Assembly: GCA_021824095.1 (NCBI GenBank)
Contig: JAKALQ010000001.1
Span: 2,131-66,130, forward strand
Origin: Actinomycetes bacterium
GTDB lineage: Bacteria; Actinomycetota; Actinomycetes; S36-B12; UBA5976
Length of the DNA: 64,000 nt
Reading direction: 5' to 3'
Shown here: one piece after another, positions 4,284 through 23,656 of the stretch
How the letters are laid out: every line of letters starts with the position of its first letter
Position numbering within the stretch: position 1 is the stretch's first letter
The notes under the pieces: generated by a model
What the model was told of the DNA's origin: nothing
Databases searched by the model: none
The model's input: only the letters and a program-made list of their open reading frames with translations
Made by a program: the position numbers and the translations under genes

Positions 4284-4333
4284 CACGGCGCTTGCGCGGG
4301 CTCGTTGATCGAGCGCGCATCCGGCGTCTGGCC

Positions 4334-5392: not shown

Positions 5393-5463
5393 CCGCGCAT
5401 GCGCCCCATCCTGCGCCCTGCGGTCGATCGGTGGCTAGGGGCGGAGGCGGACAAACGTCTGCG

Positions 5464-6267: not shown

Positions 6268-7793
6268 CGCGTCGTCGCCTGCTCGCCGATGCGCGCAAGG
6301 CCGGGGAAGATGCCTCGCAGTGCCGGGTAGATGCCACGGTAGACGCCGTACAACTCCTCGTAGATGGGCACGCGATCCGGGTCTGGAGTGAAGTGCGCGC
6401 CGATGCCACTCATCTCACAAGCGGCAGTCTCGATGTCCGGATGCAGGCCCGCTGCGACCGCGGCGAGCATGCCCACCCCAAGGCAGGTGCTCTCCGGCTC
6501 ACGGACGATCGCGACATCGCGCTGCAGGACGTCAGCCATGATCTGCGACCACACCCGACTGCGGGACCCACCACCGAGCGCGATGAGTTCACGCACCGGC
6601 GTCCCGGACGCCGCCTCCGCCCCCTCCGTGAGGAAGCGTTGCTCGTAGGCGATGCTCTCGAGGAGCGCCCGGTAGACGTGCGACTTCCCGTGTGCACCCG
6701 TGAGCCCGATCATGGCACCGCGTGCGTGCGGGTCCCAGTAGGGGGTGAGCGCGCCAGTCCAGTACGGGAGCACCATGAGCCCGTCGGCACCCGGCGGCAG
6801 AAGCGCCGCTGCCGTCTCGAGGACCTGCTCCGGCGATAGCTCGAGACCGAGCGCACGTGGGTCGACGCCGGCGAACTTGTTCACGAACCACTGCAGGTTG
6901 AAGGTGCCGCCGCCGATGAAGGTCTCGAAGGTGTAGCCACCGGGCACCGCGGCTGAGAGGACGCGGAAGGCATGGCTGTGTGCGTAGGTGCGGCTGTAGG
7001 TGCCAGCCACGACGCCACTGCCCATGTTGAGGTAGCCGCGTCCGGGCAGGATGGCGCCGGTGCCGAGCTGCGCCGATTGGCCGTCACCGAGTCCGGCAAC
7101 GATCGGGGTTCCGCGGGGGATGTTCAGCTCATCGGCGACGTCGTCGGCAATGGGGGCGACGATGTCACCAGGGGCGACGAGTCGGCAGAACTGGTCACGC
7201 GAGAGGCCGGCCTCGTCGAGCAGTGCGTCGGAGTAGTCGAACGTCGTCATGTCGATGACCCCGAGTGGGTCGGCGCTCCCCCACGACGTCACCCATGCGC
7301 CGGTGAGGCGATGGTTGAGGAAGCCCTGGACGTCGACGATGTGTGAGGCGCGGTGCAGGGTGCTCGGCTCATGGGTGCGCAGCCACAGGAGCTTGTACCA
7401 GGCCGGAGTGAGGTTCGGTGGCTTGCCGGTGATGCCGTGCACTCGCTCGGTGCCGTGCTCCTCGACCTCACGCACGGCACGGCCGTCCATCCACAGCATT
7501 GCGGGACGCAGCGGCTGCCCGAACTCATCGAGGCAGACGAAGGTCTCCCGCTGGTGCGTCACCGCGATCGCTGCGATGCGCGCACTGTCGACGGACTGCA
7601 CGACGCGCGCGAGTGCACGCCGCGTGACCACCCACCAGTCCTCTGCGTTCTGCTCGCCCCACCCGGGGTGCGGATGGCTCGTCTCGTAGGTCGCACGGGC
7701 CTCGGCGATGGCACGGCCCTGCGCATCCCAGACCACCGCCTTCGCAGCCGTCGTCGATGCATCGATGCCGATGACGAGATCACGATCGGTCAT
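6264..7793 (-). CDS. FGGY-family carbohydrate kinase (xylulokinase-like)
   Basis: 509 aa. The N-terminal IGIDASTTAAKAVVWD and HPHPGWGEQNAEDWW motifs match FGGY kinases, and the C-terminal GGGSRS motif is present. ATGA overlap with the upstream gene at 7790..7793. Confidence 0.85.
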   Translation of the reverse strand: MTDRDLVIGIDASTTAAKAVVWDAQGRAIAEARATYETSHPHPGWGEQNAEDWWVVTRRALARVVQSVDSARIAAIAVTHQRETFVCLDEFGQPLRPAMLWMDGRAVREVEEHGTERVHGITGKPPNLTPAWYKLLWLRTHEPSTLHRASHIVDVQGFLNHRLTGAWVTSWGSADPLGVIDMTTFDYSDALLDEAGLSRDQFCRLVAPGDIVAPIADDVADELNIPRGTPIVAGLGDGQSAQLGTGAILPGRGYLNMGSGVVAGTYSRTYAHSHAFRVLSAAVPGGYTFETFIGGGTFNLQWFVNKFAGVDPRALGLELSPEQVLETAAALLPPGADGLMVLPYWTGALTPYWDPHARGAMIGLTGAHGKSHVYRALLESIAYEQRFLTEGAEAASGTPVRELIALGGGSRSRVWSQIMADVLQRDVAIVREPESTCLGVGMLAAVAAGLHPDIETAACEMSGIGAHFTPDPDRVPIYEELYGVYRGIYPALRGIFPGLARIGEQATTR

Positions 7794-9226
7794 ACGAGTT
7801 CCTCCATCGTGCGTGCGAGAGCATCGGCGTCATGGAGGATGCGCGCGACCAACGCGTCGTCCCACCCACCGAGATGGTGCAGCACATCAACCGCGGTGAG
7901 CCGGTTGCGCATCATGTGGCAGTTGCGCAGCGCCCACGCGGCAAGCTCGGGTGCGGTCGTCGGTTCAAGCGCGGTGAATGTGGAAGCAACGCCGGCGGCC
8001 TGCAATGCCCGCGCGATGGTGCGTGCCGGCTTCACCAGCGCCTGGAACTCAGCGCGACGTCCCGGCCACTCGCGCACGAATGCCGCCACCGCGGTGCGCT
8101 GCGCATCCCAGCGGTCAAGCTTCGCGGCGTAGTCAGGCCAGCACTCCTCCGCAAGGGCGTCGGACCCGCCGAGTCCCGCGAAGGCATGAAGCACGGCTGC
8201 CCGCTCCGCTTCACGATCGATCACAGGCGGCACGAATGCCTCACCGTGCAAGGCATCGAGCCTCGCGACGAGCTCGTCCCACACGAGCGACGCGACGACA
8301 CTCGCAACGCCCACCTGCGCACCATGGAGCCCGATGCTGCGATGGGCCGAGGCGTTCGCCATGTCGAGCATGTGGCTCACGAGGTGCTCGACACCGGACA
8401 GCAGTGCCGTCGAACCGGCGACGCCGGTAGCGACGCCGCGGATGTCGAGTGCCCGTACGAGCGCGGACGTCGACTCCGGGTCCGCCTCGGCGAGCCCGGG
8501 TGACCAGTCCTCGATGCCCTCGCCTACGGCGTGCAACAGCGCCACTGGCCCCCATGAGAAGCCGTCATCGAAGCCGAGGTCGCGCGCGAGCAGCCAGTCG
8601 GCTGGTGCGACGAACATGGAGTTGATCTCACCGAAGCCCGCTCGGTTCATCCGCGCCGGCGCCTCGGCGATGAGGACGGTGTCCGCGACGACGATGTCCG
8701 GCCAGCGCGAGGGCACGGTGCGCTTCACGCCGTTGCGGAGGATGACCGAGACGTCATCGGTGAAGCCGTCGACGGATGCCGCGGTCTGAACAGTGATGAC
8801 GGGCACGTTGCCGGCGCCGACGGACGCCATCTTCCCGATGTCGGAGATGGTGCCGCCGCCCATGGCGACGATGACATCGACCCCCCGCGCTGCAGCACTC
8901 GCCTGCGCGATGACGTCCTCCGATGCGTGCAACTCGGGGTACCCGTCATCGAGCACGAGCACCTCGACATCCGACTCCCGGGCGAGTAGCGCGGCAACGT
9001 AGTCCTTCGCCGGCACGCCCCTGCGCATGATCGGGGTGCGATCGACGACGAAGAGGAGTCGTGGGCGACGTCCCCCGATCCCCTGCATGAGGTCGCGCAC
9101 CTTCGCGGGGATATCCGGGAGCACGTTGGCACCCACGAGGATCTCGCGTGTCCCGCAGGGTTCCACGCGTTCCCCGGGGTGTGCAGCGATGACGCAGTTC
9201 ACGGCATCGATGAGGTTCTCGTTCAT
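7790..9226 (-). CDS. Iron-containing alcohol dehydrogenase family protein, glycerol-1-phosphate dehydrogenase (AraM)-like
   Basis: MGGGTISDIGK nucleotide-binding motif and His-rich metal region (VEHLVSHMLD...GLHGAQVG). I place the start at ATG 9226 (MNENLIDAVN), which overlaps the upstream stop (ATGA at 9223..9226). The track ORF's extra 77 N-terminal residues are Arg/Pro-rich and overlap the upstream gene. Confidence 0.78.
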   Translation of the reverse strand: MNENLIDAVNCVIAAHPGERVEPCGTREILVGANVLPDIPAKVRDLMQGIGGRRPRLLFVVDRTPIMRRGVPAKDYVAALLARESDVEVLVLDDGYPELHASEDVIAQASAAARGVDVIVAMGGGTISDIGKMASVGAGNVPVITVQTAASVDGFTDDVSVILRNGVKRTVPSRWPDIVVADTVLIAEAPARMNRAGFGEINSMFVAPADWLLARDLGFDDGFSWGPVALLHAVGEGIEDWSPGLAEADPESTSALVRALDIRGVATGVAGSTALLSGVEHLVSHMLDMANASAHRSIGLHGAQVGVASVVASLVWDELVARLDALHGEAFVPPVIDREAERAAVLHAFAGLGGSDALAEECWPDYAAKLDRWDAQRTAVAAFVREWPGRRAEFQALVKPARTIARALQAAGVASTFTALEPTTAPELAAWALRNCHMMRNRLTAVDVLHHLGGWDDALVARILHDADALARTMEELV

Positions 9227-9969
9227 TGCGATCCTGTCGGGTCGCCCTGGTCGTCCCAGGGATGGGTCTGGAAGTGCGCGTCGAGCACCTCGCGCAGTGC
9301 TGTGATGCAGGCGTCCGCCGTGGCGGCGGGGGAGACGTCGGTCGTCGGGAGCACCGACTGCGGGTCGAAGGGCAGGGCGAGGGCGCCGTACACATCCGTA
9401 AGGACGTCCCGCACTCGTTCGCCGTCGCCGCAGACGATGCCAGCGCCGAACATCCATCCACCGCGCACGATGCGCTGCGCCGTGCCGGCGATCTTGTGCT
9501 GGCCCGCAATGCCGAGGCTGTAGTCCCCCGGGCAGTACTCGTCGACGGCGGCACCCATCTCGGTGGCCACACCGACGTTCTGGAGGGCGTCGCGGATGAG
9601 GCCGGTGAGTGTCGTGAAGCGCTCCTGCGTGCCCGCATGCGGTTCCGCCTCTGACGCCGAGAACTCGATGCAGACAGACGCGGGGGTGTAGGCCACCGCA
9701 TGCCCGCCGGGTGCACGGAGCACCGGGAGGAAACCGTGACGCAACGCGGCGTCGACGGCCCTGTCGTACCCGGGGTTCACGCGGTCCCGCCCGCCGAAGG
9801 CGACGACGGGACGCGGTCGGTAGATGCGCACGAGCGGCAGTCCCCCGATCGCGGTGACCCTGCGGAGGTACGCCGGCCCCATCGCGAGGTCGCTCGTCCC
9901 GGTCTGCATGACGACCGACCAGCGGGCCCGAGGTGCCAAGTGGTCGGTCGTCGTGAGCGCCGGAGTCAC
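9223..9969 (-). CDS. Lipoate-protein ligase A family (BPL/LplA/LipB domain) protein
   Basis: LplA-type catalytic-domain pattern including the conserved lysine motif (HKIAGTAQR) and RAPGGHAV. The start is uncertain: GTG 9969 lies 5 nt after the E2 stop, and ATG 9909 is the alternative. Confidence 0.72.
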   Translation of the reverse strand: MTPALTTTDHLAPRARWSVVMQTGTSDLAMGPAYLRRVTAIGGLPLVRIYRPRPVVAFGGRDRVNPGYDRAVDAALRHGFLPVLRAPGGHAVAYTPASVCIEFSASEAEPHAGTQERFTTLTGLIRDALQNVGVATEMGAAVDEYCPGDYSLGIAGQHKIAGTAQRIVRGGWMFGAGIVCGDGERVRDVLTDVYGALALPFDPQSVLPTTDVSPAATADACITALREVLDAHFQTHPWDDQGDPTGSQ

Positions 9970-9973
9970 GTGG

Positions 9974-10642
9974 TCACCCGGTGATGGTGGCGGCAAGCTC
10001 GCGTCGCAGGGCGGCGAGGAATGCCGCACCGGCCGCACCGTCGACGGCACGGTGGTCGCAGGTGAGCGTGAAGGCCGCCATGGGGCGGATAGCGATGCTG
10101 TCCTCCACGACGGTCACCGTGGGCTTCGAGCTTCCGACGGCGAGGATGGCCACGGCCGGGGGATTCAGGATCGCCGCAAAGCGGTCGATGCCGAGCATGC
10201 CGAGGTTCGAGACCGTGAAGGTGGCCCCCTCATAGTCTGCCGTCGTGAGCGCGTTCGCTCGGGCGCGGACGACGATGTCACGACGACGCCCCGCAATGCC
10301 ATCGAGCGACAGCGCCTCGACACCATGGACGACGGGCACTGTGAGCCCCGCATCGGTCGCCACCGCGAGTGCGATGTTTACCTCCGGGAAGGCGGTGATG
10401 ACCTCGTCAGCGAAGTGCGCATTCAGCTCCGGCACCGCGATGAGCGCACGGGCACAGGCGGCGAGGATGAGGTCGGTCACCGTGACACCCGGGAGGGCCT
10501 TCGCATCCGCGATGGGCCGGGTCATGTCGACGTCGATGCTGAGCGAGAAGGCGGGAGCCGCCCATGCCTGCACCATGCGACGTGATGCGACGCGCCGAAT
10601 ACCCTTCAGGGGCGTGGCGGTTCCCTCGGACAGCACCGCCAT
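9974..10642 (-). CDS. 2-oxoacid/acetoin dehydrogenase E2 acyltransferase, catalytic domain only
   Basis: 222 aa starting at MAVLSEGTATPLKGIRR. Catalytic DHRxxDG motif (CDHRAVDGAAGAAFL) and SNLG motif are present. There is no lipoyl domain and no peripheral-subunit-binding domain. The start shares 1 nt with the upstream stop (TGATG at 10640..10644). Confidence 0.85.
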   Translation of the reverse strand: MAVLSEGTATPLKGIRRVASRRMVQAWAAPAFSLSIDVDMTRPIADAKALPGVTVTDLILAACARALIAVPELNAHFADEVITAFPEVNIALAVATDAGLTVPVVHGVEALSLDGIAGRRRDIVVRARANALTTADYEGATFTVSNLGMLGIDRFAAILNPPAVAILAVGSSKPTVTVVEDSIAIRPMAAFTLTCDHRAVDGAAGAAFLAALRRELAATITG

Positions 10643-11556
10643 CACCAGCCCCGATCCGCTGACACGGCCGCGACACGGACGTCGTCGGCGTGGCCGGCGC
10701 ACCCGTAGAGGCGCATCTTCTCGATGGTGGCCTCGACCATGAGCGCACGGCCCCGGGTCACCGCCACCTCGAACTGCCGATCGCCCTGCGCCCACGTCTC
10801 CTCGATGCCACGACGGAAGGCGAGCCGCAGGTCGGTATCGGCATTCAACTTGTGCACGCCGTGCTTCACTGCATCGGTGAGCTCCACATCCGGAACACCC
10901 GAGGCGCCGTGGAGGACGAGCGGGATGCCGACACGCTCCTTGATGTCACGGACGAGATCGATCGCGAGCGGCTGCGGCTCCATCGTCGGCACGCCGTGCA
11001 CGACACCCGCGGAGATCGCGAGGATGTCGATGCCGGTCTCGGCCGCGAAGCGCTCGGCCTCGTCCGGATCGGTGTAGTACGAACTCCAGTCGACGGCCTG
11101 GTCGGCATCCGGGATGCGGCCGAGCTCGGCCTCGACCATGACGCCGAAGTCGTGCGCGAGCTCGACGACCCGACGTGTCGTGCGGATGTTCTCCTCGAAC
11201 GGCAGGTGCGCGCCGTCGTACATAATCGAGGTGAAGCCGAGCTTGATGGCCTCGAGCACCTCATCGAAGGAACCGTGGTCCAGATGGATGACGTGCACGG
11301 CATCCGACTCCGCAGCGATGCGCTTCGTCATCTCGTACGCCTTGCGCAGACCGATGTGCGGGATGATCGCACGACCCACCTGGAGGAAGACCGGGGCGTT
11401 CGCCCGCTCAGCGGCGATGAGCAGCGCCTGCGTCGTCTCGTCGTTGTGCATGTTGAAGGCGCCGACCGCGTAGCCGCCAGCCTCTGCGGCGCGGACGATC
11501 GAGAGCGGGAGGTTCATGATGTCGTTTCCCCTTCGCAGGAACACTTCTGCGCTCAT
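10642..11556 (-). CDS. Class II (Zn-dependent) ketose/fructose/tagatose-bisphosphate aldolase family protein
   Basis: PF01116-like pattern: GYAVGAFN, HLDHG metal ligands, EAELG and LVLHGASG. The ATG at 11556 overlaps the upstream stop (ATGA at 11553..11556). The track ORF's 78 extra N-terminal residues were rejected. Confidence 0.85.
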   Translation of the reverse strand: MSAEVFLRRGNDIMNLPLSIVRAAEAGGYAVGAFNMHNDETTQALLIAAERANAPVFLQVGRAIIPHIGLRKAYEMTKRIAAESDAVHVIHLDHGSFDEVLEAIKLGFTSIMYDGAHLPFEENIRTTRRVVELAHDFGVMVEAELGRIPDADQAVDWSSYYTDPDEAERFAAETGIDILAISAGVVHGVPTMEPQPLAIDLVRDIKERVGIPLVLHGASGVPDVELTDAVKHGVHKLNADTDLRLAFRRGIEETWAQGDRQFEVAVTRGRALMVEATIEKMRLYGCAGHADDVRVAAVSADRGW

Positions 11557-13028
11557 GGGCGCACTACCTGAGTGAGCGCTCGCTGCCAGCCGGCATAGAG
11601 CGTTGCCCGCTCGTCCGCACCCATGTGGGGTTCGAACGTGCGGTCCACAGACCAGGTGGAGGCTGCGTCTGCGTGGTCCTTCCAGATGCCGGTCGCAATG
11701 CCGGCGATGTACGCGCACCCGAGGGCGGTGCGCTCGAGCTCCCGGGGCCGCACGACCTCGAGGTCGCCGATGTCCGCGAGGAACTGGCACAGCCAGTCAC
11801 TCTGCGCGCCACCGCCGTCGACCTTGAGCGAGGTGACGGAGAGGCTTCCGAGGTCGGGGATACGGAGGATGTCGACAGTCTGGTACACCATCGCTTCCAC
11901 CGCTGCACGGATGACGTGGGCCCGCGACGTCTCGAGGCTCATGCCGGTGAGCGCCGCGCGTGCATTGCGGTTCCAGTGCGGTGCGCACATGCCGCCGAAG
12001 GCCGGCACGATGTAGACCCCGCCCGTGCTCGCCACGCTGCTCGCGATGTCGTCGATGCGTGCACCACCGGCGCTGATGCCGAGTGACTCCTGCATCCAGC
12101 TGAGGGTCTGCCCGCTGTGGAAAACGACGCCCTCGCTCTCGTACGCGGTGGCGCCCTGCACAGTCCAGCCGACGCTCGCAGTGAGGCCGGGGACGAGCAT
12201 CGGTGTGGTGCCGGTGTTGAAGGTGAGGACGGCGGCGGTCCCGAAGGTGTTCTTCGCCGAGCCGGGCTCGAGACAGGCCTGCCCGAACATGCCGGCCTGC
12301 TGGTCCGCGATGACTGCTCGCACCGGGGGCTGATGCTCGATGAGGTCGGCCGCGACGCGACCGAAGTCGCCGTCACTCGGCAGCACAGTCGCGAAGATGG
12401 CCATCGGGATGTCGAGGCGGGCGCAGATCTCCTCGTCCCACGCGAGTGAGTCGAGGTTGAACAGTGCCGTGCGCGATGCACATGAGTGATCGGTCGCATG
12501 CATGGTGCCACCGGTGAGGTTCCACAGCACCCAGCTGTCGACGGTGCCCATGGCGATCTCCCCCGCCTCAGCGCGTGCCCGCAGCCCCGGCACCTCCTCG
12601 AGCAGCCACACGACCTTCGCGGCAGAGAAGAAGGAGTCATTGCGCAGGCCGGTGCGCTGCTCGAACATTGGTGCGAGGCCATCGTCCTCCCAGCGACGGA
12701 CGATGTCGTCGGTCTGCTGGGAGATCCAGACGACCGCGTCGTGCGCCGGAGCACCGGTGCGACGGTCCCACATGATGACGGTCTCGCGGTGACTCGTAAC
12801 ACCGACGGCGACGACATCCGCAGCGTCGACCTTCGCGACGGCCTCGGTGATCGCACTCCGCGTCGCGTCCCACAGCGCGATCGGGTCCATCTCGACCCAG
12901 TTCTGGCGCGGGTACTTCCAGGGGACGGATGCGCGACCGTCCGCGATGATGGTGCCCGCGGTGTCGACGAGCACCGCACGACAGCTGCTCGAGCCGGTGT
13001 CGATGGCGAGGATGAGATCGCGGCTCAT
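11553..13028 (-). CDS. Glycerol kinase family (FGGY) kinase
   Basis: GlpK-like motifs: LAIDTGSSSCRAVL, NWVEMDP, TSHRETV, VWISQQT, ADQQAGMFGQ and DGGGAQS. It diverges from canonical GlpK at several conserved positions. ATG 13028 overlaps the GlpD-like stop (ATGA at 13025..13028). Confidence 0.82.
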   Translation of the reverse strand: MSRDLILAIDTGSSSCRAVLVDTAGTIIADGRASVPWKYPRQNWVEMDPIALWDATRSAITEAVAKVDAADVVAVGVTSHRETVIMWDRRTGAPAHDAVVWISQQTDDIVRRWEDDGLAPMFEQRTGLRNDSFFSAAKVVWLLEEVPGLRARAEAGEIAMGTVDSWVLWNLTGGTMHATDHSCASRTALFNLDSLAWDEEICARLDIPMAIFATVLPSDGDFGRVAADLIEHQPPVRAVIADQQAGMFGQACLEPGSAKNTFGTAAVLTFNTGTTPMLVPGLTASVGWTVQGATAYESEGVVFHSGQTLSWMQESLGISAGGARIDDIASSVASTGGVYIVPAFGGMCAPHWNRNARAALTGMSLETSRAHVIRAAVEAMVYQTVDILRIPDLGSLSVTSLKVDGGGAQSDWLCQFLADIGDLEVVRPRELERTALGCAYIAGIATGIWKDHADAASTWSVDRTFEPHMGADERATLYAGWQRALTQVVRP

Positions 13029-14680
13029 CGCGCCGACCCCGGGGTTCCGGCGCCGAAGCTTGCCGATCGAGGACCACTGGGATCCGGGATGGCGAGGTGG
13101 TCGAGCCACTCGCGGTAGCCCTCGATCTCACGGCTGCGGCGCGCCTCGTCCCATCCGAGGAGGTCGGCCATGATGGCGATGACGTCATCTACGGCGGCGA
13201 GTCCGTGCTGCGGCTCAAAGGCGAGGAGGCTGCGTCGGGCCATAACGTCAGTGAGGGTGAGGGCGAACTCCGAGCGAACCGCGAAGGCGACCTCGGCCGC
13301 GATGGCACCGGCGCCCTCATCAATGACGCGGGCGAGATCCGGGGTCATGGTGACGAGGTTCCAGATGGCGAGCGCACGGCTGCCGTAGAGCGAGGACAGA
13401 CGCTCCGCGGTTCGCGCCCCGGCGCCCCCTGCAAGCAACCGCGTGCGCGTCTCTGCAACCGACGGACCAATGGCACCGGGGTAGGGACGACGACGGGTGA
13501 CGGTGCTGCGCCCTTCGCCACCGCGCATGCGCATCACCAGATCGACCGCATCCTCCGCGAGCTTGCGGAACGTGGTGAGCTTGCCGCCGACGACCGTGAT
13601 GAGACCCGGAAGGCCGTGTGCGGCATGGTCATGCAGGACATGGGTGCGGGGCACTTTCGACTCCGCCTTGTTCGGCACATACGGCAGGGGTCGCACGCCG
13701 CTGTACGTGTAGAGCACGTCGTCCAACGTGAGGTTCGCACCCGGGACGAGTGCGTTCACCTCGCCGAGGAGGTATTCGGCCTCACCGATGTCGCAGCGCG
13801 CATCATCGGGGTCACGCTCGAAGCGGATGTCCGTGGTGCCGAGCATGTAGCGGCCGAACCACGGGATGACGAGAACGAGTCGACCGTCGACGCGGGACTC
13901 GTAGTAGACGACGTCCGTCGGTGCACCCGGGAAGGGATCGACGATGAGGTGGCTGCCCTTCGTGCCGCCGTTGAGACGCGGCTGCGGACGGTCGGGCACC
14001 GTGAAGAGCCGGTCGATCCACGGCCCGGCCGCGTTCATGACGATGGGGGCGAGGACCTCTCCCTCCTCGCCGGTGAGGGTGTTCATGTAGCGCACGCCGA
14101 CGACATGACCGTCGCTAAGAATCGGGGCCGTGACCCGACTGTGGGTGCGCACGTCGGCGCCGTTGTCGATGGCATCGACCGTGAGCTCGACGCAGAGGCG
14201 TTCCGCGTACTCCACCTGACCGTCGTAGAAGACGACGGAGCCCTTGAGCCCTTCACCGGCGACGCCTGGGAATCGCTCGACGGTCCTGCGCCGCCCGAGG
14301 TAGCGGTGCCACGGCGCCGACTTCTTCAGGGAAAGCACGTCGAACAGGATCATGCCGAGCTCGACCATCCAGCCGGGACGCTGGTTGTGTCGAAACATCG
14401 GCATCATCCACGACACCGGCTTCACAAGATGCGGTGCGTCTCGGAACAGGCGCTCGCGTTCCGACAGCGACTCGTACACGAGCCCGAAGTCGAGGTGCTC
14501 CAGGTAGCGCAGGCCACCGTGCACGAGGCGTCCCGACCATGCGGAGACTCCCGCGCACACGTCCTCCTGCTCGAGGAGCACCACGGAGAGCCCACGCAGC
14601 GCGGCATCACGCGCGATGCCGATGCCATTGATGCCGGCGCCGACGACGATGAGGTCGACGTTCGTCTGCGGGGTTCCCAT
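13025..14680 (-). CDS. FAD-dependent glycerol-3-phosphate dehydrogenase family protein (GlpD/EryB-like)
   Basis: N-terminal FAD fold DLIVVGAGINGIGIARDAALRG, the GlpD-family HGGLRYLEH motif, and a C-terminal GlpD-type helical domain. Confidence 0.88.
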   Translation of the reverse strand: MGTPQTNVDLIVVGAGINGIGIARDAALRGLSVVLLEQEDVCAGVSAWSGRLVHGGLRYLEHLDFGLVYESLSERERLFRDAPHLVKPVSWMMPMFRHNQRPGWMVELGMILFDVLSLKKSAPWHRYLGRRRTVERFPGVAGEGLKGSVVFYDGQVEYAERLCVELTVDAIDNGADVRTHSRVTAPILSDGHVVGVRYMNTLTGEEGEVLAPIVMNAAGPWIDRLFTVPDRPQPRLNGGTKGSHLIVDPFPGAPTDVVYYESRVDGRLVLVIPWFGRYMLGTTDIRFERDPDDARCDIGEAEYLLGEVNALVPGANLTLDDVLYTYSGVRPLPYVPNKAESKVPRTHVLHDHAAHGLPGLITVVGGKLTTFRKLAEDAVDLVMRMRGGEGRSTVTRRRPYPGAIGPSVAETRTRLLAGGAGARTAERLSSLYGSRALAIWNLVTMTPDLARVIDEGAGAIAAEVAFAVRSEFALTLTDVMARRSLLAFEPQHGLAAVDDVIAIMADLLGWDEARRSREIEGYREWLDHLAIPDPSGPRSASFGAGTPGSAR

Positions 14681-14712
14681 GGTGCTCCTCCGATGTGTCT
14701 TCGTGTGGATGG

Positions 14713-14955
14713 TCAGTCGGCGGTCTCGATGATGGCGACGACGGTGCGCACCTCGACGGTGTCACCCGGCTGCGCCAAGATCTCAACGAGCGTGCCCGAC
14801 TCCGGAGCAAGCAGCTCCTCATCGACCTTCTCAGCGCTCACATCCGCGATGGGCTCGTCCTCCACAACCGTGTCACCGACGTTTTTCAACCAGGCGTTGA
14901 TGACACCCTCGCTCATGCCCATGCCCCATTGCGGGAGGAGGACTTCGACTCGCAT
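14713..14955 (-). CDS. Stand-alone lipoyl (biotinyl/lipoyl attachment) domain protein
   Basis: 80-aa ORF with the lipoyl-domain pattern (LPQWGMGMSEGVINAWLKNVGDTV...ADVSAEKVDEELLAPESGTL). The candidate lipoyl-lysine is K43. There is no linker, PSBD or catalytic domain. Confidence 0.8.
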   Translation of the reverse strand: MRVEVLLPQWGMGMSEGVINAWLKNVGDTVVEDEPIADVSAEKVDEELLAPESGTLVEILAQPGDTVEVRTVVAIIETAD

Positions 14956-14978
14956 TTCGTTTCCTTTCAGTCCGCCGC

Positions 14979-15995
14979 TTACGCGGCCGCTCCGGCCAGG
15001 CCGAGCATGGTTCGCACGGCGGCGGCGATGCCGTCGCGCTTGGGGTACATCTGCTTCTCCAGCGCTGGGCTGAAGGGGATCTGCATGTCCGGCGCGGTGA
15101 GGCGCACGATGGGCGCCTTGAGCGACGAGAAGGCGTGCTCAGCGACGAGCGCGGACACCTCGGCGGCCGCACCACAGGTGCGATGGGCCGGATCGACGAT
15201 GACGAGACGCCCGGTCTTCTCGACGGCCTTGATGATGCCGTCGACGTCGAGTGGCACCAGGGTGCGGGGGTCGAACACCTCCGCGGTCACACCCTCCGCG
15301 GCCAGTGCATCCGCGGCGGCAGTGGCCTCGATGACGCCGCCGGAGATGGCGACGATCGTGACGTCCGAACCTTCACGCAGAGTGCGTCCGACGCCGAGCG
15401 GGATGAAGTATTCGTCATCCTGCACCTCCTCCTTCATGCCCCACAGTGGGCAGGCCTCGAAGGAGAGCACCGGGTCATCGGAGTCGATGGCGCTGCGGAG
15501 CAGGCCCTTCGCATCCGACGGCGATGCAGGCGCGATGATCTTGAGGCCCGGCACGTTCATGAACATGGGATAGGGACGATCCGAGTGATGCGCACCTGTG
15601 TTGAGGCCGTAGAACATGGCCGAGCGGAACACCACCGGCATCGATGCCTGTCCGCCGAACATGTAGCGGTTCTTCGCCACCTGATTCACGAACTGGTCCA
15701 TGGCCATGTAGAGGAACGACGAGTACGAAAGGTCGACGATCGGCCGGAGGCCCGTCATCGCAGCGCCCGCAGCAGCGCCGACGATTGACTCCTCCGAGAT
15801 CGGGGTGTTTCGGATGCGGTTACGTCCGAAGGTCTGGAGGAAGTCGCCCTCTGCCGCACGGCTCTTGCCCGTGCCGCCGGTGGTGCCGTAGACGTTCGCT
15901 TCAACGTCCTCGCCGATGAGGACGACACGCTCATCCGCAGTGAGGGCCTCTCGCTGTGCAGCGCCGATCGCGCCGAGATAGGTCATGATGCTCAT
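14979..15995 (-). CDS. TPP-dependent dehydrogenase E1 component, beta subunit (AcoB/PdhB-like)
   Basis: 338 aa with transketolase-like pyrimidine-binding and C-terminal domains (GEDV..GGTGK, PISEESIVGAAAGAAMTGLRP). ATGA overlap with the E1 alpha stop at 15992..15995. Confidence 0.9.
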   Translation of the reverse strand: MSIMTYLGAIGAAQREALTADERVVLIGEDVEANVYGTTGGTGKSRAAEGDFLQTFGRNRIRNTPISEESIVGAAAGAAMTGLRPIVDLSYSSFLYMAMDQFVNQVAKNRYMFGGQASMPVVFRSAMFYGLNTGAHHSDRPYPMFMNVPGLKIIAPASPSDAKGLLRSAIDSDDPVLSFEACPLWGMKEEVQDDEYFIPLGVGRTLREGSDVTIVAISGGVIEATAAADALAAEGVTAEVFDPRTLVPLDVDGIIKAVEKTGRLVIVDPAHRTCGAAAEVSALVAEHAFSSLKAPIVRLTAPDMQIPFSPALEKQMYPKRDGIAAAVRTMLGLAGAAA

Positions 15996-16984
15996 CGGCC
16001 TGCTCCTGCCACTTCCGTGTAGAGGTCCTCGAAGGCAACAGAGGCATCCGGGTACGGGCTGCTGTCCGCGAATTGGTAGGCGGCCTCGACCTCGTCGAGC
16101 ACCTCATTGTCCAGCGCATCGAGTTCATCGGCAGTGGCCCATCCCTCGGCGATGAGCCACTCACGCATGATCGCGATCGGGTCACGCTGGAGCCACTGCT
16201 CCTTCTCGTCAGCATCGCGGTAATCGACACCGAGTTTGAGTCCTTCACTGTGCTCTCGGAAGCGGTACGTCATGACCTCAATGAGCGTCGGACCCTCACC
16301 GCGGCGGGCACGATCGACGGCGTCACGCACGGCTTCGTAGACCGCCAGCACGTTCTGGCCGTTCTCGACGCGGACTCCGGGGATCCCGAAGCCGGCGGCC
16401 CGATCGACGATGCGACCGGAGGTCACCGTGTGCGCCGGTGTCGAGAGCGCATAGTGATTGTTCTCGCATAGGAAGACGACGGGAAGCTTCCAGACGCCGG
16501 CCATGTTCATCGACTCATAGAGCGACCCCTGGTTCGCCGCACCGTCGCCGAAGAACGAGAGTACGACGCGATCATTGCCGAGCACCTTGGACGAGAGGCC
16601 TGCACCGAGAGCGATCGGGATGTTGCCCCCCACGATGCCGGACTCGCCGAGGCTGCCGAGTGAGAAGTCGGCGAGGTGCAGCGATCCGCCCTTGCCCTTG
16701 CAGATGCCCGTGGCCTTGCCGACGAGCTCCGCCATGAGTGGGCCGAGGGGGGACCCCTTGCCGATCGGGTGACCGTGGCTACGGTGGTTTCCCGTCATGT
16801 AGTCGGCGTCGCCGAGGGCCATGCAGGCACCGACAACCTGAGCCTCCTGGCCAATGCTCGTGTGCAGGGCACCGGGAATGAGGCCGCGCTTCAGCATCTT
16901 GGACGCGCGCTCGTCGAAGTAGCGGATGCGAAGCATGCGTCGCTGCATCTCGAGGAGCGTCTTCGTCTCGAGTTCGTTGGACAT
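15992..16984 (-). CDS. TPP-dependent dehydrogenase E1 component, alpha subunit (AcoA/PdhA-like)
   Basis: TPP-binding motif GDGAANQGSLYESMNMAGVWKLPVVFLCENN, plus HRSHGHPIGKG and GKATGICKGKGGSLH blocks. The start is taken at ATG 16984 (MSNELETKTL..). Confidence 0.9.
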   Translation of the reverse strand: MSNELETKTLLEMQRRMLRIRYFDERASKMLKRGLIPGALHTSIGQEAQVVGACMALGDADYMTGNHRSHGHPIGKGSPLGPLMAELVGKATGICKGKGGSLHLADFSLGSLGESGIVGGNIPIALGAGLSSKVLGNDRVVLSFFGDGAANQGSLYESMNMAGVWKLPVVFLCENNHYALSTPAHTVTSGRIVDRAAGFGIPGVRVENGQNVLAVYEAVRDAVDRARRGEGPTLIEVMTYRFREHSEGLKLGVDYRDADEKEQWLQRDPIAIMREWLIAEGWATADELDALDNEVLDEVEAAYQFADSSPYPDASVAFEDLYTEVAGAGR

Positions 16985-17009
16985 GAATGGGGTTCCTTTC
17001 GTGCCGGCG

Positions 17010-18065
17010 TCAGCCGTGCGCCTTGCGTGCATTGCGGTCGGTGAGGACTGCGGCAAGGATCACCGCGCCAACCACCACCGGCTGCAGATTGGGGTTGACG
17101 CCGGTGAGGGACAGTCCGTTGTTCAGGACGCCGATGATGAGCAGGCCGATGAAGGTGCTGCCCATCGTGCCGACACCGCCGGAGAGGCTTGCCCCACCGA
17201 TGACGACGACCGCGATGACGTTCAACAGGTAGTTCGCACCGGCGGTGGGCTGCGCTGAGTCGAGCGTCGAAATGTCGACCCAGCCAGCGACTGCCGCCAG
17301 AGCGCCGGCGATCATGTAGACCAGAGTCTTCATCCGAAGGACTGGGATGCCCGAGAGACGCGCGACTTCCTCGTTGCCACCGATGGCGTACAGCGCACGC
17401 CCGCCCGGACGGAAGCGAAGCCAGAATGCGAGGGCGAGGTAGATGAGCATCATGATGACGGCCTGCAGGGGCAGGAAGCCGAAGAGGTCAACCGTCGCGA
17501 AGTTCACGAACCACGTGGGGAAGCCGTTGATGGTGTTGCCATCGGTGATGACGAGAGCAAGGCCGAGGCAGGCCGACATGGTGGCGAGGGTGGCGACGAA
17601 GGGCTGCACCTTTCCGTAGGTGGCGAGTAAGCCGTTGATAGCGCCCACGAAGGCTCCGAGAAGGAGCCCGGCGATGAGCGTCACGACAAAGGGCCAGTGG
17701 TGGTCCGCGTACAGCGACGCGGTGAACATCATGGTGAGGGCCATGTTTGCCGCCACCGACAGGTCAATGCCGGCAATGAGGATCACGAGGGTGGCTCCCG
17801 CGGCCAGAACACCGATGTCCGTGATCTGGCTCAGGATGTTGCCGAGGTTGCGGACGGTGAGAAAGTAGGGCGACTTCAACGTCAGGCCGATGAACATGAC
17901 CACCAGGCCTATGGTGGGGCCGCCGAAGATGCGCATCGCAGAGCGCTTGCGCGCCAGCATTCGCGAGGCCGACGGTGACTCGTCGGCGGAATCGGTGTTC
18001 GTGCTCATAGGTGCGGCTTCCTGTGCTTGGTTCGATGGCATTCGGACTCCCGTGGTCCTCGTCAT
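17010..18065 (-). CDS. Sugar ABC transporter permease (RbsC/AraH-like, type I PBP importer)
   Basis: 351 aa, about 10 hydrophobic segments, RbsC-like sequence pattern. ATGA overlap with the ATPase stop at 18062..18065. Confidence 0.85.
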   Translation of the reverse strand: MTRTTGVRMPSNQAQEAAPMSTNTDSADESPSASRMLARKRSAMRIFGGPTIGLVVMFIGLTLKSPYFLTVRNLGNILSQITDIGVLAAGATLVILIAGIDLSVAANMALTMMFTASLYADHHWPFVVTLIAGLLLGAFVGAINGLLATYGKVQPFVATLATMSACLGLALVITDGNTINGFPTWFVNFATVDLFGFLPLQAVIMMLIYLALAFWLRFRPGGRALYAIGGNEEVARLSGIPVLRMKTLVYMIAGALAAVAGWVDISTLDSAQPTAGANYLLNVIAVVVIGGASLSGGVGTMGSTFIGLLIIGVLNNGLSLTGVNPNLQPVVVGAVILAAVLTDRNARKAHG

Positions 18066-19591
18066 GCAATGGTCTGGGGGACGGCGAGGCTCATGACGGT
18101 CTCGGAGGTGGCCTCGTCGCGCGGGAGCACTGCGATCTGACGCCCGCCGGACATGACAAGCACGCGATGTGCGAGGCCGAGGACCTCCTCCAACTCGGAG
18201 GAGACGAGGATGACGGCGACGCCGCGTGCGGCATAGTCGCGGATGATGGCGTAGATGGACATCTTCGCCCCGACGTCCACGCCGCGCGTCGGCTCATCGA
18301 GGATGAGCACCTTGGGTTGGCGTACCAGCCACTTGGCAAGGAGCACCTTCTGCTGGTTGCCACCGGACAGTCGCACGACGGGACGGTCAAGGCTGCCCCG
18401 GATGTCGAAGGCGGTGCGACTGTCCTCCGCGATGCGGTTGATCCATCCCTTCGTCACGATGCCACGGACGCGCAGGATGCGCTCCCAGGGGGAGACGATG
18501 TTCCGGGACGAGTCGAGTGTGAGATTGAGGCCCTGCTGCTTGCGATCCTCTGGCACCATGACGATGCCGGCCTTGAGCGCGTGGCCCGGGTTGCGAAGGC
18601 GAATCTTGCGCCCTTCCACGGTGACTGCACCACCATCGGCCTTGTCGACCCCAGCGATGGCGCGCACCACCTCGGTGCGCCCGGCGCCCACGAGGCCCGC
18701 AATGCCGAGGATCTCGCCCTTCGCCACCGTAAAGTCGATGCCGTCGAACACACCCTTGCGGCTGAGGTCGTGGACCTCGAGCACGACCTCCGGACTGGCG
18801 GGAGCCGGGGCCTCGTGGCCGAAGACGAAGTCACGTCCGACCATGGCGCGCACGAGCTCCCGCTGCGGGACGTCACCGGACTGCCAGGTCGCCACGACGT
18901 TGCCGTCGCGCATGCACACGATCTCGTCGGAGATGGTGCGCACTTCCTCCAGGCGGTGGGAGATGTAGATGATGCCGGCGCCGTGCTCGCGGAGGACTGA
19001 GATCTGATGCAGGACCCGATCGGTCTCCTGGTTTGTGAGCGATGCGGACGGCTCGTCGAAGATGACATAGCGCGGGTTGCGCGTGATCGCCTTGGCGATC
19101 TCGATGCTCTGCTGCATGGCGATCGAGAGGCCGCGCACCGGGCGTCGGGGGTCGATGTCGATTCCGAGCTTGCGTAGGACCTCGCGGGCCTGCTCCACCA
19201 TGGCGTCCCGGTCGACGCGTAACCCCGCCCGAGGGAGGCGGCCGAGGAAGATGTTCTCGGCAATGGAGAGGTGGGGAACGGTTCGGATCTCCTGATGGAT
19301 GAGTGCGACGCCGGACGCCAGGGCGTCCGCGGGGCTGGCGGGCGCGTATGCGACGCCGTCGATCGTCATCAAACCGGAATCGGGTTGCTGGATGCCGGCG
19401 ATGATGCTGCTCGTCGTCGACTTGCCGGCACCGTTCTCGCCGATGAGCCCGACGACCGAGCCGGCACGGACGCCGAGGTTTACCGAGTGCAGGACCGTCA
19501 CCCCGGCAAAGGACTTCACGAGGTCGGTGACGACCAGAGCACGACCTGCCCCGGTCACTCCATCCGTCGCTACCATGAGATCACCTTCCAT
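18062..19591 (-). CDS. Sugar ABC transporter ATP-binding protein, duplicated NBD (RbsA/MglA-like)
   Basis: 509 aa with two ABC cassettes: GENGAGKST ... IFDEPSASL, and GLVGAGRTE ... LSGGNQQK ... LILDEPTRGVD. Confidence 0.9.
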   Translation of the reverse strand: MEGDLMVATDGVTGAGRALVVTDLVKSFAGVTVLHSVNLGVRAGSVVGLIGENGAGKSTTSSIIAGIQQPDSGLMTIDGVAYAPASPADALASGVALIHQEIRTVPHLSIAENIFLGRLPRAGLRVDRDAMVEQAREVLRKLGIDIDPRRPVRGLSIAMQQSIEIAKAITRNPRYVIFDEPSASLTNQETDRVLHQISVLREHGAGIIYISHRLEEVRTISDEIVCMRDGNVVATWQSGDVPQRELVRAMVGRDFVFGHEAPAPASPEVVLEVHDLSRKGVFDGIDFTVAKGEILGIAGLVGAGRTEVVRAIAGVDKADGGAVTVEGRKIRLRNPGHALKAGIVMVPEDRKQQGLNLTLDSSRNIVSPWERILRVRGIVTKGWINRIAEDSRTAFDIRGSLDRPVVRLSGGNQQKVLLAKWLVRQPKVLILDEPTRGVDVGAKMSIYAIIRDYAARGVAVILVSSELEEVLGLAHRVLVMSGGRQIAVLPRDEATSETVMSLAVPQTIA

Positions 19592-19643
19592 CTGGGGTCT
19601 CGGTCGGCCGCCCGATCTCCACCTCGGGCGGCCGACCGGGTTT

Positions 19644-20612: not shown

Positions 20613-20670
20613 GGGTTCTCCTTCTCTGGGGTGATCACGGCGGGGACCGCAATCCGGCAAGTCTGCATTT

Positions 20671-20765: not shown

Positions 20766-20807
20766 ATCGAGAGGCCGTCGCGATCAACGGGGAATCGAGG
20801 AGCAGCC

Positions 20808-21785
20808 GTGACGACAACGGTCGACGCTGAGTACCAGCGCCTGGTGACGAAGGTGGCGCTGCTCTACCACCAGCACGGGATGAAGCAGACGGAGATCGCC
20901 CGCAGGTTCGGCATCTCACAGCCCCAGGTCTCGCGCCTGCTGGAAGCCGCCACGGCCATGCACATCGTCCGGACGACGGTGCTGGTCCCGGATGGATTGC
21001 ATGCGGAGCTCGAGGGGGCGCTGGAGCAGGCCTACGGGCTGCAGGATGCCCGCGTCACCGAGGTGAGCGACCCGAACGACGAAGAGGCACTCATCCGCGA
21101 CCTCGGCATCGCATTGGCCCAGCAGATGCCTGGGCTCCTGGCAGGGGCCGAGCGACTCGGGCTCACTTCATGGAGCCGATCCCTGCGCGCCGCCATCAGC
21201 GCCCTCGACCCGGTGGCAGGGTCGACCGTCGAGACCGTCGTCGAGATGCTCGGGGACGTCGGGCAACCGGCGCTGCAACACGAGTCCGCGCAGGCCACGG
21301 CCACGCTGGCCAGACTCCTCGGCGCCACGCCGCGATTCCTCCGCGTCCCCGGAGTGACGACGAGCGTTGCCATGCGCGATGGCCTGCTCATGCATGACTC
21401 ACACGCACAGGACGCGCTCGCCATGTTCAACACCCTGGACGTAGCACTCTCGGGCATCGCCGGGTGCGAGGCGACCGGCGCGCTGGGCCCGGGCGACAAC
21501 TTCTTCACGGAGGAGCAGTTCGCATTCGCCCGGTCACTCGGCGCGGTGGGACAGGTGAACCTGCGCTTCATCGCCGAGGACGGCAGCCCCGTGCACTCCG
21601 AGTTGGACGCCCTCGTCATCGGCGTCACCCTTGAGCAGCTGCAGCACACACCAAAGCGCATCGGTGTGGGCGGCGGCCCAAGCAAGTGCGTGCCCATTCG
21701 GGCCGCGCTGCGCGGCAAGTGGCTCAACACGCTCGTCACTGATGTCGATACGGCCAAATGGCTGGTGGCGAACGCCAACACCTGA
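20808..21785 (+). CDS. SorC/DeoR-family sugar-binding transcriptional regulator
   Basis: GTG 20808 is preceded by AGGAG. N-terminal HTH (LVTKVALLYHQHGMKQTEIARRFGISQPQVSRLL) plus a SorC sugar-phosphate-binding domain. Only the last 325 codons of track ORF 19299..21785 are credible. Confidence 0.85.
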   Translation: MTTTVDAEYQRLVTKVALLYHQHGMKQTEIARRFGISQPQVSRLLEAATAMHIVRTTVLVPDGLHAELEGALEQAYGLQDARVTEVSDPNDEEALIRDLGIALAQQMPGLLAGAERLGLTSWSRSLRAAISALDPVAGSTVETVVEMLGDVGQPALQHESAQATATLARLLGATPRFLRVPGVTTSVAMRDGLLMHDSHAQDALAMFNTLDVALSGIAGCEATGALGPGDNFFTEEQFAFARSLGAVGQVNLRFIAEDGSPVHSELDALVIGVTLEQLQHTPKRIGVGGGPSKCVPIRAALRGKWLNTLVTDVDTAKWLVANANT

Positions 21786-23617: not shown

Positions 23618-23656
23618 GGCGGGTCCTTTCGTTCTTCGCTATGAGCCTCCCCGCTC

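Follow-up and report, generated by a model that had tools for sequence, protein, structure and literature searches.

Carrier, core and their operon

The window that we analysed is a 64-kb stretch of actinomycete DNA, and our interest lies in a single, translationally coupled minus-strand operon within it (5464-20660, delimited by a listing of open reading frames (ORFs) together with Pfam and NCBIfam scans), which carries genes for a 2-oxoacid dehydrogenase-type system whose E2 component is divided between two of them. In the canonical pyruvate dehydrogenase (PDH), 2-oxoglutarate dehydrogenase (OGDH), branched-chain 2-oxoacid dehydrogenase (BCKDH) and acetoin dehydrogenase complexes, E2 is of course a single polypeptide with a lipoyl domain, a peripheral-subunit-binding domain (PSBD) and a catalytic core, the PSBD recruiting E1 and/or E3. 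Here, transcription runs from the binding protein, ATPase and permease of a sugar transporter through E1α, E1β, a lipoyl ORF, a GlpD-like dehydrogenase, a GlpK-like kinase and an aldolase to the E2 core, and on to an LplA/LipB-superfamily gene, an iron alcohol dehydrogenase-like oxidoreductase (Fe-ADH), a xylulokinase-like kinase and a HAD-IIA phosphatase (Table 1). ATGA or TGATG overlaps occur at seven of the junctions, that between aldolase and core among them; the E1α stop overlaps the E1β start, the GlpK-like start overlaps the GlpD-like stop by ATGA, and the lipoyl ORF, the GlpD-like gene and the E1α gene each have a Shine-Dalgarno sequence of their own. A sequence-only reading of this DNA had picked out the carrier and the core as independent ORFs, had seen neither a PSBD, an Ala/Pro linker nor an E3 (dihydrolipoamide dehydrogenase) gene, and had suggested an H-protein-like shuttle with its own lipoate ligase; on the structure of the genes we agree with it throughout, and on the nature of carrier and ligase we come to a different view.

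For comparison, we scanned one genome per species, which gave at least 598 matching loci, and worked with the best 80 of these and with two further loci on plasmids. Annotation was by phmmer, with E. coli Lpd, a LipA and the proteins of the window as queries and ±10 kb taken around each locus, and all co-occurrence counts depend on that range and on the resulting assignments. The split architecture was found in 49 non-redundant loci.

The carrier consists of a lipoyl domain and little else: PF00364 matches the protein across its full length (59 bits), the ORF stops directly after the domain, and it has its own Shine-Dalgarno sequence, GAAAGGAAACGAAATG. The top NCBIfam models are E2 lipoyl domains (E2o at 72.8 bits, then the acetoin E2 lipoyl domain, NF011457, at 66.6), the candidate K43 is the hairpin lysine, within AEKVD, and in the stand-alone ORFs of about 80 residues that 46 of the 49 split loci yielded, this lysine (E/D-K-V/A) is invariant. 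A biotin carrier can be set aside, the motif being EKV/DKA rather than MKM and the E2 lipoyl models scoring 60-73 bits against 28.8 for the biotin carboxyl carrier protein, and so can an H protein of the GCV_H family, for which PF01597 gives 17.8 bits (cut-off 22.2) over only 43 residues. We therefore read the carrier as an E2-type lipoyl domain which is no homologue of the H protein and would resemble it in function only; of the shuttle architecture first suggested, the logic of a visiting carrier fits all of our computational tests, and the kinship does not. On the Sphingobium sp. RAC03 plasmid pBSY17_1 (9974-14241), a PQQ-dependent dehydrogenase gene comes after those for E1α, E1β and a stand-alone 80-residue lipoyl protein, and the annotation shows no E2 core in the vicinity; this E1α is 55% identical to that of the window. 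Free lipoyl carriers with E1αβ thus occur beyond the clade of split E2s, possibly with a different downstream partner.

The core is equally self-contained. Its ORF starts about eight residues before the catalytic domain and covers positions 5-224 of the 232 in the PF00198 profile, so that alignment to the lipoyl and catalytic profiles places the domain boundaries where the sequence-only reading had drawn them, and its DHRAVDG and TVSNLG motifs are invariant in 30 family members. An AlphaFold2 model (pLDDT 90.5, pTM 0.88) has E2 cores as its best PDB matches, with a TM-score of about 0.8 and a Foldseek E=7e-26 to the cores of the pyruvate dehydrogenase complex (PDC); the N-terminal strand for strand exchange within trimers is present, and the closest solved structure by sequence is the human/pig PDC E2 core (140 bits). 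Lipoyl domain, PSBD, linker and C-terminal knob are all absent from the polypeptide, and the lipoyl ORF lies 4 kb upstream. Fused relatives all end in a conserved ...LE(E/D)PGLAL, as against the short, variable and mostly polar or truncated tails of split cores (...LESA, ...LESGDW and, in the window, ...AATITG). The alignment of the window's core to the human one ends three residues before the human C terminus, and those three are, we assume, the hydrophobic MLL. This end matters, given that the C-terminal 3-10 helix is the 'knob' in the knobs-and-socket contacts that join E2 trimers into 24- or 60-mers, and that disrupting the knob reduces actinobacterial AceF to trimers (PMC10415282). Judged by these alignments, the hydrophobic knob is lost in all split cores, and since PSBD, linker and knob are all missing, the core is probably a free trimer of the kind formed by chloramphenicol acetyltransferase (CAT). 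With no scaffold, linker or PSBD, and no evident means of building a complex, the 80-residue protein would have to diffuse.

The missing pieces were sought directly. A hidden Markov model of PSBD and linker, built from the lipoyl-to-core linker regions of 33 canonical relatives and recovering its positive controls at 85-133 bits, drew a blank both in the split loci and in the window read in all frames (best E=0.5 there), and PF02817, the Pfam model of the PSBD, matched none of the window's proteins. E3 was equally elusive in the window: tblastn with E. coli Lpd gave a best E=2, and an E3-like disulfide motif at 60319-60348 proved to lie in an out-of-frame, non-coding ORF, which removes the one candidate for a hidden E3. 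In four of the 49 split loci (L041, L057, L027 and L088), a true lpdA stands inside the cluster; it ends the Rhodobacterales cluster (L041, TIGR01350 519 against a cut-off of 408.8) and, in Arthrobacter agilis as well as on an Arthrobacter plasmid, is the gene next upstream of the core. From these four loci we conclude that the dithiolane of the carrier is evidently cycled by an E3, and they lend support to a borrowed E3 in the remainder: where the cluster has no lpdA, as here, the housekeeping E3 would be the obvious supplier.

As for the private lipoate ligase of the sequence-only reading, a gene of the LplA/LipB family does follow the core, although it is LipM/LipL-like rather than LplA-like. 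Its NCBIfam matches are weak ones to LipL-type GcvH:protein amidotransferases (46.7 and 31.8 bits, far below cut-off). Against the LipL/LipM-like PDB structures 2p0l and 2p5i, the Cys of YCPG aligns with C150 and the Lys of K-I-A-G (K-x-(A/V)-G) aligns too, a dyad that is invariant in the attachment enzymes of 29 loci, which are 241-289 residues long. E. coli LplA has about 338 residues, and LplA-type ligases depend on a C-terminal accessory domain, or on a separate LplB, to form lipoyl-AMP; this domain is absent from the window's enzyme, which matches only PF21948, and from the 29 relatives (a separate LplB was not searched for). A lipA gene is present in 12 of the 49 loci, usually beside the attachment enzyme, and it encodes a true lipoyl synthase (TIGR00510 331, cut-off 310). 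With no accessory domain, the Cys/Lys dyad kept and lipA often adjacent, a distant LipM/LipL-like octanoyl/lipoyl transferase is more likely than an LplA-type ligase. A private transferase of this sort, often with a private LipA, would be a frequent companion of the split core and not a universal one; the expected co-occurrence is seen in 29 of the 49 loci and fails in the other 20.

Table 1. Features of the operon and of the genes directly upstream (positions in the window)
Feature	Coordinates	Strand	Support
Ribose-type CUT2 sugar-binding protein	19644-20660	-	Pfam + NCBIfam
CUT2 ABC ATPase	18062-19591	-	Pfam + NCBIfam
CUT2 permease	17010-18065	-	Pfam + NCBIfam
E1 alpha subunit, thiamine diphosphate-binding, 330 aa	15992..16984	-	PF00676 E=2e-77
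E1 beta subunit, 338 aa	14979..15995	-	PF02779 + PF02780
Free lipoyl carrier, 80 aa, candidate lipoyl-Lys K43	14713..14955	-	PF00364 E=4e-16
GlpD-like FAD dehydrogenase, 551 aa	13025..14680	-	PF01266 + PF16901
GlpK-like FGGY kinase	11553..13028	-	FGGY_N + FGGY_C
Class II (metal-dependent) ketose-phosphate aldolase, 304 aa	10642..11556	-	PF01116 E=2e-82
Free E2 acyltransferase catalytic core, 222 aa	9974..10642	-	PF00198 E=2e-60
Probable LipM/LipL-like octanoyl/lipoyl transferase, 228-248 aa by start codon	9223..9969	-	PF21948 E=1e-11
Fe-ADH_2 / glycerol-1-phosphate-dehydrogenase-like oxidoreductase, 478 aa	7790..9226	-	PF13685 + PF00465
Xylulokinase-like FGGY kinase, 509 aa	6264..7793	-	FGGY_N + FGGY_C
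HAD-IIA phosphatase (phosphoglycolate / sugar-phosphate phosphatase-like), 267 aa	5464..6267	-	PF13344 + PF13242
SorC/DeoR(Bs)-family sugar-phosphate-responsive regulator	20811..21785	+	PF04198 E=3e-40
Second GlpD paralogue, 575 aa	21890..23617	-	PF01266 + PF16901; NF008899 326 < cut-off 360
Second SorC regulator	~23700-24734	+	next to second GlpD paralogue

Distribution and ancestry of the split architecture

The identical split, with genes in between, in 49 loci disposes of a frameshift or assembly artefact, as do the ribosome-binding site of the lipoyl ORF and the translational coupling. Within Actinomycetota its bearers are Nakamurella, Geodermatophilus, Kocuria, Arthrobacter, Sinomonas, Nocardioides, Cryobacterium, Streptosporangium, Acidimicrobiales and others; beyond that phylum, they are Rhodobacterales and a Shinella plasmid. 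In Nakamurella flavida the gene order is exactly that of the window. Three apparent splits among canonical relatives (L051, L071 and L080) retain both PSBD and PGLAL tail, and were rejected as contig-end or frameshift cases.

The company kept by the core is remarkably constant: the lipoyl ORF accompanies it in 46 of the 49 loci, the aldolase in 45, E1α and E1β in 43, the xylulokinase-like kinase in 37, Fe-ADH and the GlpD-like enzyme in 36 each, the HAD phosphatase in 34, the GlpK-like kinase in 33 and an equivalent of the second GlpD in 13, with a SorC regulator in most. Where at least 18 kb of sequence is available (37 loci), E1α/β are found in 35, the lipoyl ORF in 36 and the aldolase in 34. 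The aldolase, GlpD-like and GlpK-like genes between carrier and core, which had been taken for unrelated, lie where they were said to lie, but they are co-conserved parts of the system, and what it acts upon is best approached through this sugar/polyol context, the chief clue that there is.

By descent, too, the split cores belong together. Among database homologues of the core, the 120 with the highest scores are without exception 219-244 residues long and match PF00198 only; once a library is clustered at 50% identity, a single representative of the family is left, at 250 bits, with the next cluster at 193 bits and, from that score downwards, a mix of full-length E2s and fragments. Loci at 45-49% identity, from Gaiellales and relatives, are canonical E1a-E1b-E2-E3 operons whose E2 comprises lipoyl domain, PF02817 and core. 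In a neighbour-joining tree of catalytic domains all 49 split cores form one clade (bootstrap 76/100), sister to these canonical E2s. The alphaproteobacterial split cores form a nested subclade within it (100/100), a placement consistent with horizontal transfer. Horizontal spread of the whole module would also fit the base composition of the window, in which the operon region (4000-22000) has a G+C content of 64-68% and a third-position G+C (GC3) of 0.80-0.87 against 69-73% and 0.87-0.92 over most of the window, together with the copies on Shinella, Rubrobacter and Arthrobacter plasmids.

Several loci depart from the common plan. In L026, L027 and L038 (Paeniglutamicibacter, Arthrobacter agilis and Salinibacterium), the split core is joined by a fused E1α-β polypeptide of about 725 residues that comes from another E1 lineage (about 235 bits, where about 550 is the rule elsewhere) and by a much more divergent lipoyl protein with an ETDKA motif; E1 and carrier have therefore been exchanged there and the split core kept. 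Upstream of an intact E1-carrier-aldolase-core cluster in an uncultured actinomycetote (L007 / L012, contig_4136, about 1-5300), the ABC ATPase, permease, Fe-ADH, xylulokinase-like and HAD genes are each broken into several short ORFs, which looks like a decaying module or like sequencing frameshifts in a long-read metagenome-assembled genome. On a Rubrobacter indicoceani plasmid (L090, 1427-13858), a divergent Zn-dependent dehydrogenase replaces the triad of Fe-ADH, kinase and HAD phosphatase, and an 840-bp unannotated gap follows the aldolase at the position expected of the core.

Around the operon of the window itself, the nearest upstream genes are those of a second GlpD paralogue and of two SorC-family regulators (20811-24734). 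Directly downstream, on the minus strand, is a URO-D-fold protein (4334-5392) nearest to MtaA/CmuA-type methylcobamide methyltransferases (TIGR01463 160, cut-off 235), which was not found in related loci. Farther along the same strand come an 888-aa ORF (997-3663), an unusual fusion of an N-terminal alpha/beta-hydrolase or S15 peptidase-like region with a C-terminal ABC ATPase, and after it an ABC-2 permease (164-1018).

What the system may act upon

The monophyletic split, the loss of PSBD, linker and knob, and the invariance of catalytic residues and lipoyl-lysine all argue for the non-assembled acetoin/2-oxoacid-dehydrogenase-type system that the sequence-only reading had in mind, and we consider it rather probable that these genes encode a dispersed system of the acetoin/pyruvate-dehydrogenase class, built into an operon for sugar or polyol catabolism. 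The catalytic steps that we infer would run as follows. A heterotetramer-type E1αβ with thiamine diphosphate (ThDP) would cleave a 2-keto intermediate supplied by the operon's kinases and dehydrogenases, and would reductively acylate lipoyl-K43 of the free carrier; the acyl-carrier would diffuse to the bare core, where the His/Asp (DHRxxDG) site would hand the acyl group to CoA; and the dihydrolipoyl carrier would be re-oxidised by a dihydrolipoyl dehydrogenase, which would be the housekeeping Lpd here and the cluster's LpdA in some lineages. The carrier would owe its modification to the LipM/LipL-like Cys/Lys acyl-transferase of the cluster, and in many relatives the cluster's LipA would insert the sulfur atoms.

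Which keto compound would enter such a cycle is likewise something we infer, and here we lean, by a narrow measure, towards a keto-sugar or acyloin intermediate, that is a ketose, a ketose phosphate or a 1-deoxy-ketose; we think pyruvate unlikely, and some other compound makes up what is left of our expectation. Several observations favour a sugar-derived substrate. First, both E1 subunits fall below the PDH equivalog cut-offs, which speaks for a sugar-derived compound over pyruvate: E1α gives 327.7 with TIGR03182, the PDH E1 alpha model (cut-off 393.85), the PDH E1 model TIGR03181 gives 251.8 (cut-off 411.35), and E1β, which has no additional domain, gives 282.1 with NF006667 (cut-off 321). 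Second, E1α is unusually conserved across phyla, sharing 74-77% identity with its copies on the Shinella and Rubrobacter plasmids, against a cross-phylum identity of about 45-50% for the core and about 52% for GlpD. Third, core and aldolase are coupled in translation in nearly all loci, the aldolase lying directly upstream of the core, with a TGATG overlap in the window, and the two genes being adjacent in 45 of the 49 loci. Fourth, the next-nearest E1 lineages sit in sugar loci with an E2 and an E3 of their own.

Two of those loci can be described more closely. On the Rhizobium sp. N324 plasmid pRspN324e (L092, 1512-15900), SorC, a 442-aa oxidoreductase, E1α, E1β, a full-length E2 of the canonical unsplit kind, lpdA and a class II fructose-bisphosphate (FBP) aldolase are accompanied by a divergently transcribed CUT1 sugar ABC transporter and PfkB kinase, and clusters like it have matches in many Rhizobium, Sinorhizobium and Agrobacterium plasmids. 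With a PDH-like complex and an aldolase together in a sugar locus here, such linkage is not unique to the split family. On a Brevibacillus laterosporus plasmid (L094, 1521-12910), E1α, E1β, E2 and lpdA stand directly downstream of a sugar phosphotransferase system (PTS; IIA, IIB, IIC and a PRD-type regulator), followed by SorC, the E1 being of the same broad lineage at 47% identity.

The remaining enzymes give hints rather than a pathway, and nearly all of them fall short of the curated subfamilies that they resemble. The GlpD-like protein reaches 343 with NF008899 (cut-off 360); the GlpK-like kinase passes the GlpK subfamily model NF000756 (512, cut-off 498) and misses TIGR01311 (508, cut-off 590); the xylulokinase-like kinase has 279 with TIGR01312 (cut-off 380), the HAD-IIA phosphatase 174 with TIGR01452 (cut-off 202), and Fe-ADH, at 125 with NF002022, is far below a cut-off of 413, its PDB matches being glycerol-1-phosphate (G1P) dehydrogenases. 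The sugar-binding protein is nearest to ribose-binding proteins (2ioy, 153 bits) and next to M. smegmatis CUT2 binding proteins (4rs3, 4rsm and 5hko, 111.9-113.3 bits), which we take to be polyol-binding. The closest structures to the aldolase are the class II sulfofructose-1-phosphate aldolases 8q57 and 8q58 (218 bits), and like the class II sulfofructose-1-phosphate aldolases it has Ala at the position of Arg280, which in FBP aldolases contacts the distal phosphate (PMC10665668). With this Ala, a ketose-1-phosphate looks a somewhat likelier substrate than a bisphosphate, and the GlpD-like and G1P-dehydrogenase-like enzymes would yield ketose-1-phosphates from polyol phosphates. The GlpK/GlpD pair is missing from the Sinomonas and Arthrobacter versions of the cluster, which suggests that glycerol or glycerol 3-phosphate is a by-product of the pathway that housekeeping enzymes are able to handle. 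A glutathione-independent formaldehyde dehydrogenase gene, fdhA, lies 1.6 kb downstream of the cluster on the Shinella sp. WSC3-e plasmid (L089, 23946-25136), beyond a transposase fragment; this could be coincidence, or a hint of formaldehyde release, for example by aldol cleavage of erythrulose-1-phosphate.

A number of named pathways were tried and set aside. Sulfoquinovose degradation is rejected, despite the aldolase's structural matches, in the absence of sulfo-specific genes, and class II sulfofructose-1-phosphate aldolases are reported absent from Actinobacteria (PMC10665668). Schemes for erythritol (EryA/EryB-like), autoinducer-2 (Lsr-like), apiose, 1-deoxyxylulose, a glycolaldehyde cycle and formaldehyde each fit some genes and none fits all. 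Acetoin itself is a separate matter: the carrier matches the acetoin E2 lipoyl domain second best, Pfam and NCBIfam scans of the window found no butanediol or acetoin genes nearby, and neither a curated AcoA/AcoB model nor an acetoin-dehydrogenase structure is among the matches of E1 and core.

More tentatively, we propose that E1αβ, carrier and core may form a lipoyl-dependent 'oxidative ketolase' of primary catabolism, which would pass a C2 acyl unit from a polyol-derived ketose, ketose phosphate or 1-deoxy-ketose to CoA, the rest being recovered as dihydroxyacetone phosphate (DHAP); we regard this as possible, and as less than an even bet. In our preferred reading of the substrate, the keto-sugar or acyloin intermediate would be cleaved in the style of acetoin dehydrogenase to acyl-CoA and an aldehyde, and the aldolase with GlpK/GlpD would funnel the remaining carbon to DHAP. 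Acetoin dehydrogenase itself cleaves an acyloin in the same way. There is also a biosynthetic example in QncN/L/M, a ThDP/lipoyl/acyltransferase system that takes a C2 unit from ketose phosphates (PMC6335953).

The strongest competitor, unlikely as we think it, is a second PDH, co-expressed with a sugar or polyol pathway whose triose phosphates would run through glycolysis to pyruvate and acetyl-CoA, with a split architecture and no new chemistry. E1α is nearest to human PDH E1α (214 bits), the core to the PDC E2 core already mentioned, and the best NCBIfam models for E1α, E1β and core are all PDH models. Every one of those equivalog scores, however, lies under its cut-off, the core is interleaved and coupled with an aldolase in 45 of 49 loci, and related E1 lineages with E2 and E3 of their own recur in the sugar clusters of rhizobia and Brevibacillus, organisms that presumably have a housekeeping PDH as well. 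No acetoin-dehydrogenase structure is among the matches, and the preference for PDH may simply mirror what has been solved.

A redox-neutral, phosphoketolase-like reaction is improbable by comparison. In it, a ketose-1-phosphate would be cleaved with elimination of phosphate to give acetyl-ThDP, from which the acetyl group would pass to a reduced dihydrolipoyl carrier and on to CoA with no turnover of E3. Comparable eliminations occur in phosphoketolase and sulfoacetaldehyde acetyltransferase, the GlpD-like and G1P-dehydrogenase-like enzymes would both make ketose-1-phosphates, and the scheme would explain why PSBD and E3 are missing, the latter from the window and from 45 of the 49 loci. But the four clusters with a true lpdA, directly beside the core in two of them, tell against it, and the E1 family is not known for such eliminations. 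Still less credible is the notion that core and lipoyl ORF are relics or have unrelated roles, such as a redox or regulatory carrier (GcvH-L, LbpA) with an inactive scaffold core; the Sphingobium plasmid does indicate that a carrier can occur coreless, but DHRxxDG, SNLG and the lipoyl-lysine are invariant across loci of several phyla, and core and carrier co-occur in 46 of 49 loci as intact, translationally coupled genes. We give the least credence of all to a biosynthetic module supplying a natural product with a glycolyl or acyl unit, for although QncN/L/M unites the same three chemistries with a ketose-phosphate donor (PMC6335953), there are no acyl carrier protein (ACP), nonribosomal peptide synthetase or polyketide synthase genes nearby, the context of uptake transporter, kinases, aldolase and SorC regulator is catabolic, and the cluster is widespread in non-producer taxa and on catabolic plasmids.

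There is, of course, a case to be made against a dispersed system fed by sugars, and it should be heard in full. The best solved-structure matches of E1α and core are mitochondrial pyruvate dehydrogenase components, which keeps pyruvate a serious candidate. No single-substrate pathway that we drafted gives every enzyme of the operon a coherent role, and if the product is glycolyl-CoA, the operon encodes no enzyme for its further metabolism. The support for a single clade, at 76%, is moderate and comes from a simple neighbour-joining analysis, and the trimeric state is deduced from sequence alone. The attachment enzyme and E3, being missing from 20 and 45 of the 49 sampled loci respectively, are dispensable as genes of the cluster.

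Known systems and what a dispersed complex would mean

How does this compare with what is already known? The canonical 2-oxoacid and acetoin complexes share with the split system the four chemistries, homologous E1α, E1β, lipoyl domain and core, the His/Asp and Ser motifs and the lipoyl-lysine, and in four loci a true E3 as part of the cluster; the nearest sequence relatives of all are the Gaiellales-type E1a-E1b-E2-E3 operons. The split E2, in contrast, consists of two genes with others between them, has no PSBD, Ala/Pro linker or knob, is usually without E3 in its cluster and is interleaved with sugar-catabolic genes. It departs from three defining features of a canonical E2, namely the fused lipoyl domain, the PSBD with its linkers and the assembly knob.

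Partial precedents do exist. The pair of OdhA/KGD and AceF is one for an E2 domain that lacks a lipoyl domain and is served by lipoyl groups in trans, and actinobacterial AceF is one for a trimeric core arising from a change in the C-terminal helix (PMC10415282). The lipoyl-less core of OdhA, however, is fused to E1o, and its lipoyl domains are tethered to AceF, which keeps its PSBD and whose knob is redirected by a three-residue, Phe-containing insertion (PMC10415282), whereas in the split system the core is a free polypeptide with its knob lost or turned polar, and the lipoyl domain is a free protein. In the glycine cleavage system, a small free lipoyl carrier visits the separate enzymes P, T and L, and E3 (the L-protein) acts without a PSBD, but the carrier here is of the E2 type, not GCV_H, and its partners would be E1αβ and a CAT-fold acyltransferase. 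In S. aureus, GcvH-L and LplA2 provide a free lipoate-binding carrier with dedicated lipoylation genes. The sHdr-LbpA clusters of sulfur oxidation likewise combine a free carrier with an LplA-superfamily enzyme of its own and often with a radical-SAM sulfur-insertion enzyme (PMC6067878). The carriers of such LbpA/GcvH-L-type systems, unlike ours, are GcvH-like, make no acyl transfer to CoA and are served by LplA-type ligases, in place of which the split clusters have a LipM/LipL-like enzyme and a standard lipoyl synthase, lipA. The best precedent for a sugar substrate is the QncN/QncL/QncM synthesis of glycolicacyl units, in which a ThDP-dependent E1-like enzyme, a lipoyl domain and an E2-type acyltransferase act on a ketose phosphate, although that system is biosynthetic, hands its product to an ACP, has its lipoyl and acyltransferase domains fused and belongs to no catabolic operon (PMC6335953). 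None of these systems has both an E2-type lipoyl protein and a catalytic core as free polypeptides, and our full-text literature search found no description of the split-E2 cluster.

The 2-oxoacid dehydrogenase complexes are the textbook case of tethered swinging arms and giant E2 scaffolds, and a free lipoyl protein working with a bare, probably trimeric core and no docking of E1 or E3 would mean, if borne out, that tethering is dispensable in vivo. Such a minimal, soluble system of four parts would allow the gain that tethering brings in rate and channeling to be measured. The oxidative ketolase, if it exists, would be the first system of the 2-oxoacid dehydrogenase type known to work with neither structural core nor swinging arms nor docking domains, and an undescribed entry of sugars into acetyl- or glycolyl-CoA; the embedding in a sugar or polyol operon, which rhizobia and Firmicutes show for related canonical complexes as well, hints at a route from sugar to acyl-CoA that may so far have gone undescribed. 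Finally, the LipM/LipL-like enzyme together with LipA may amount to a self-contained lipoylation module, which would be relevant to anyone hoping to transplant lipoyl-dependent pathways from one host to another.

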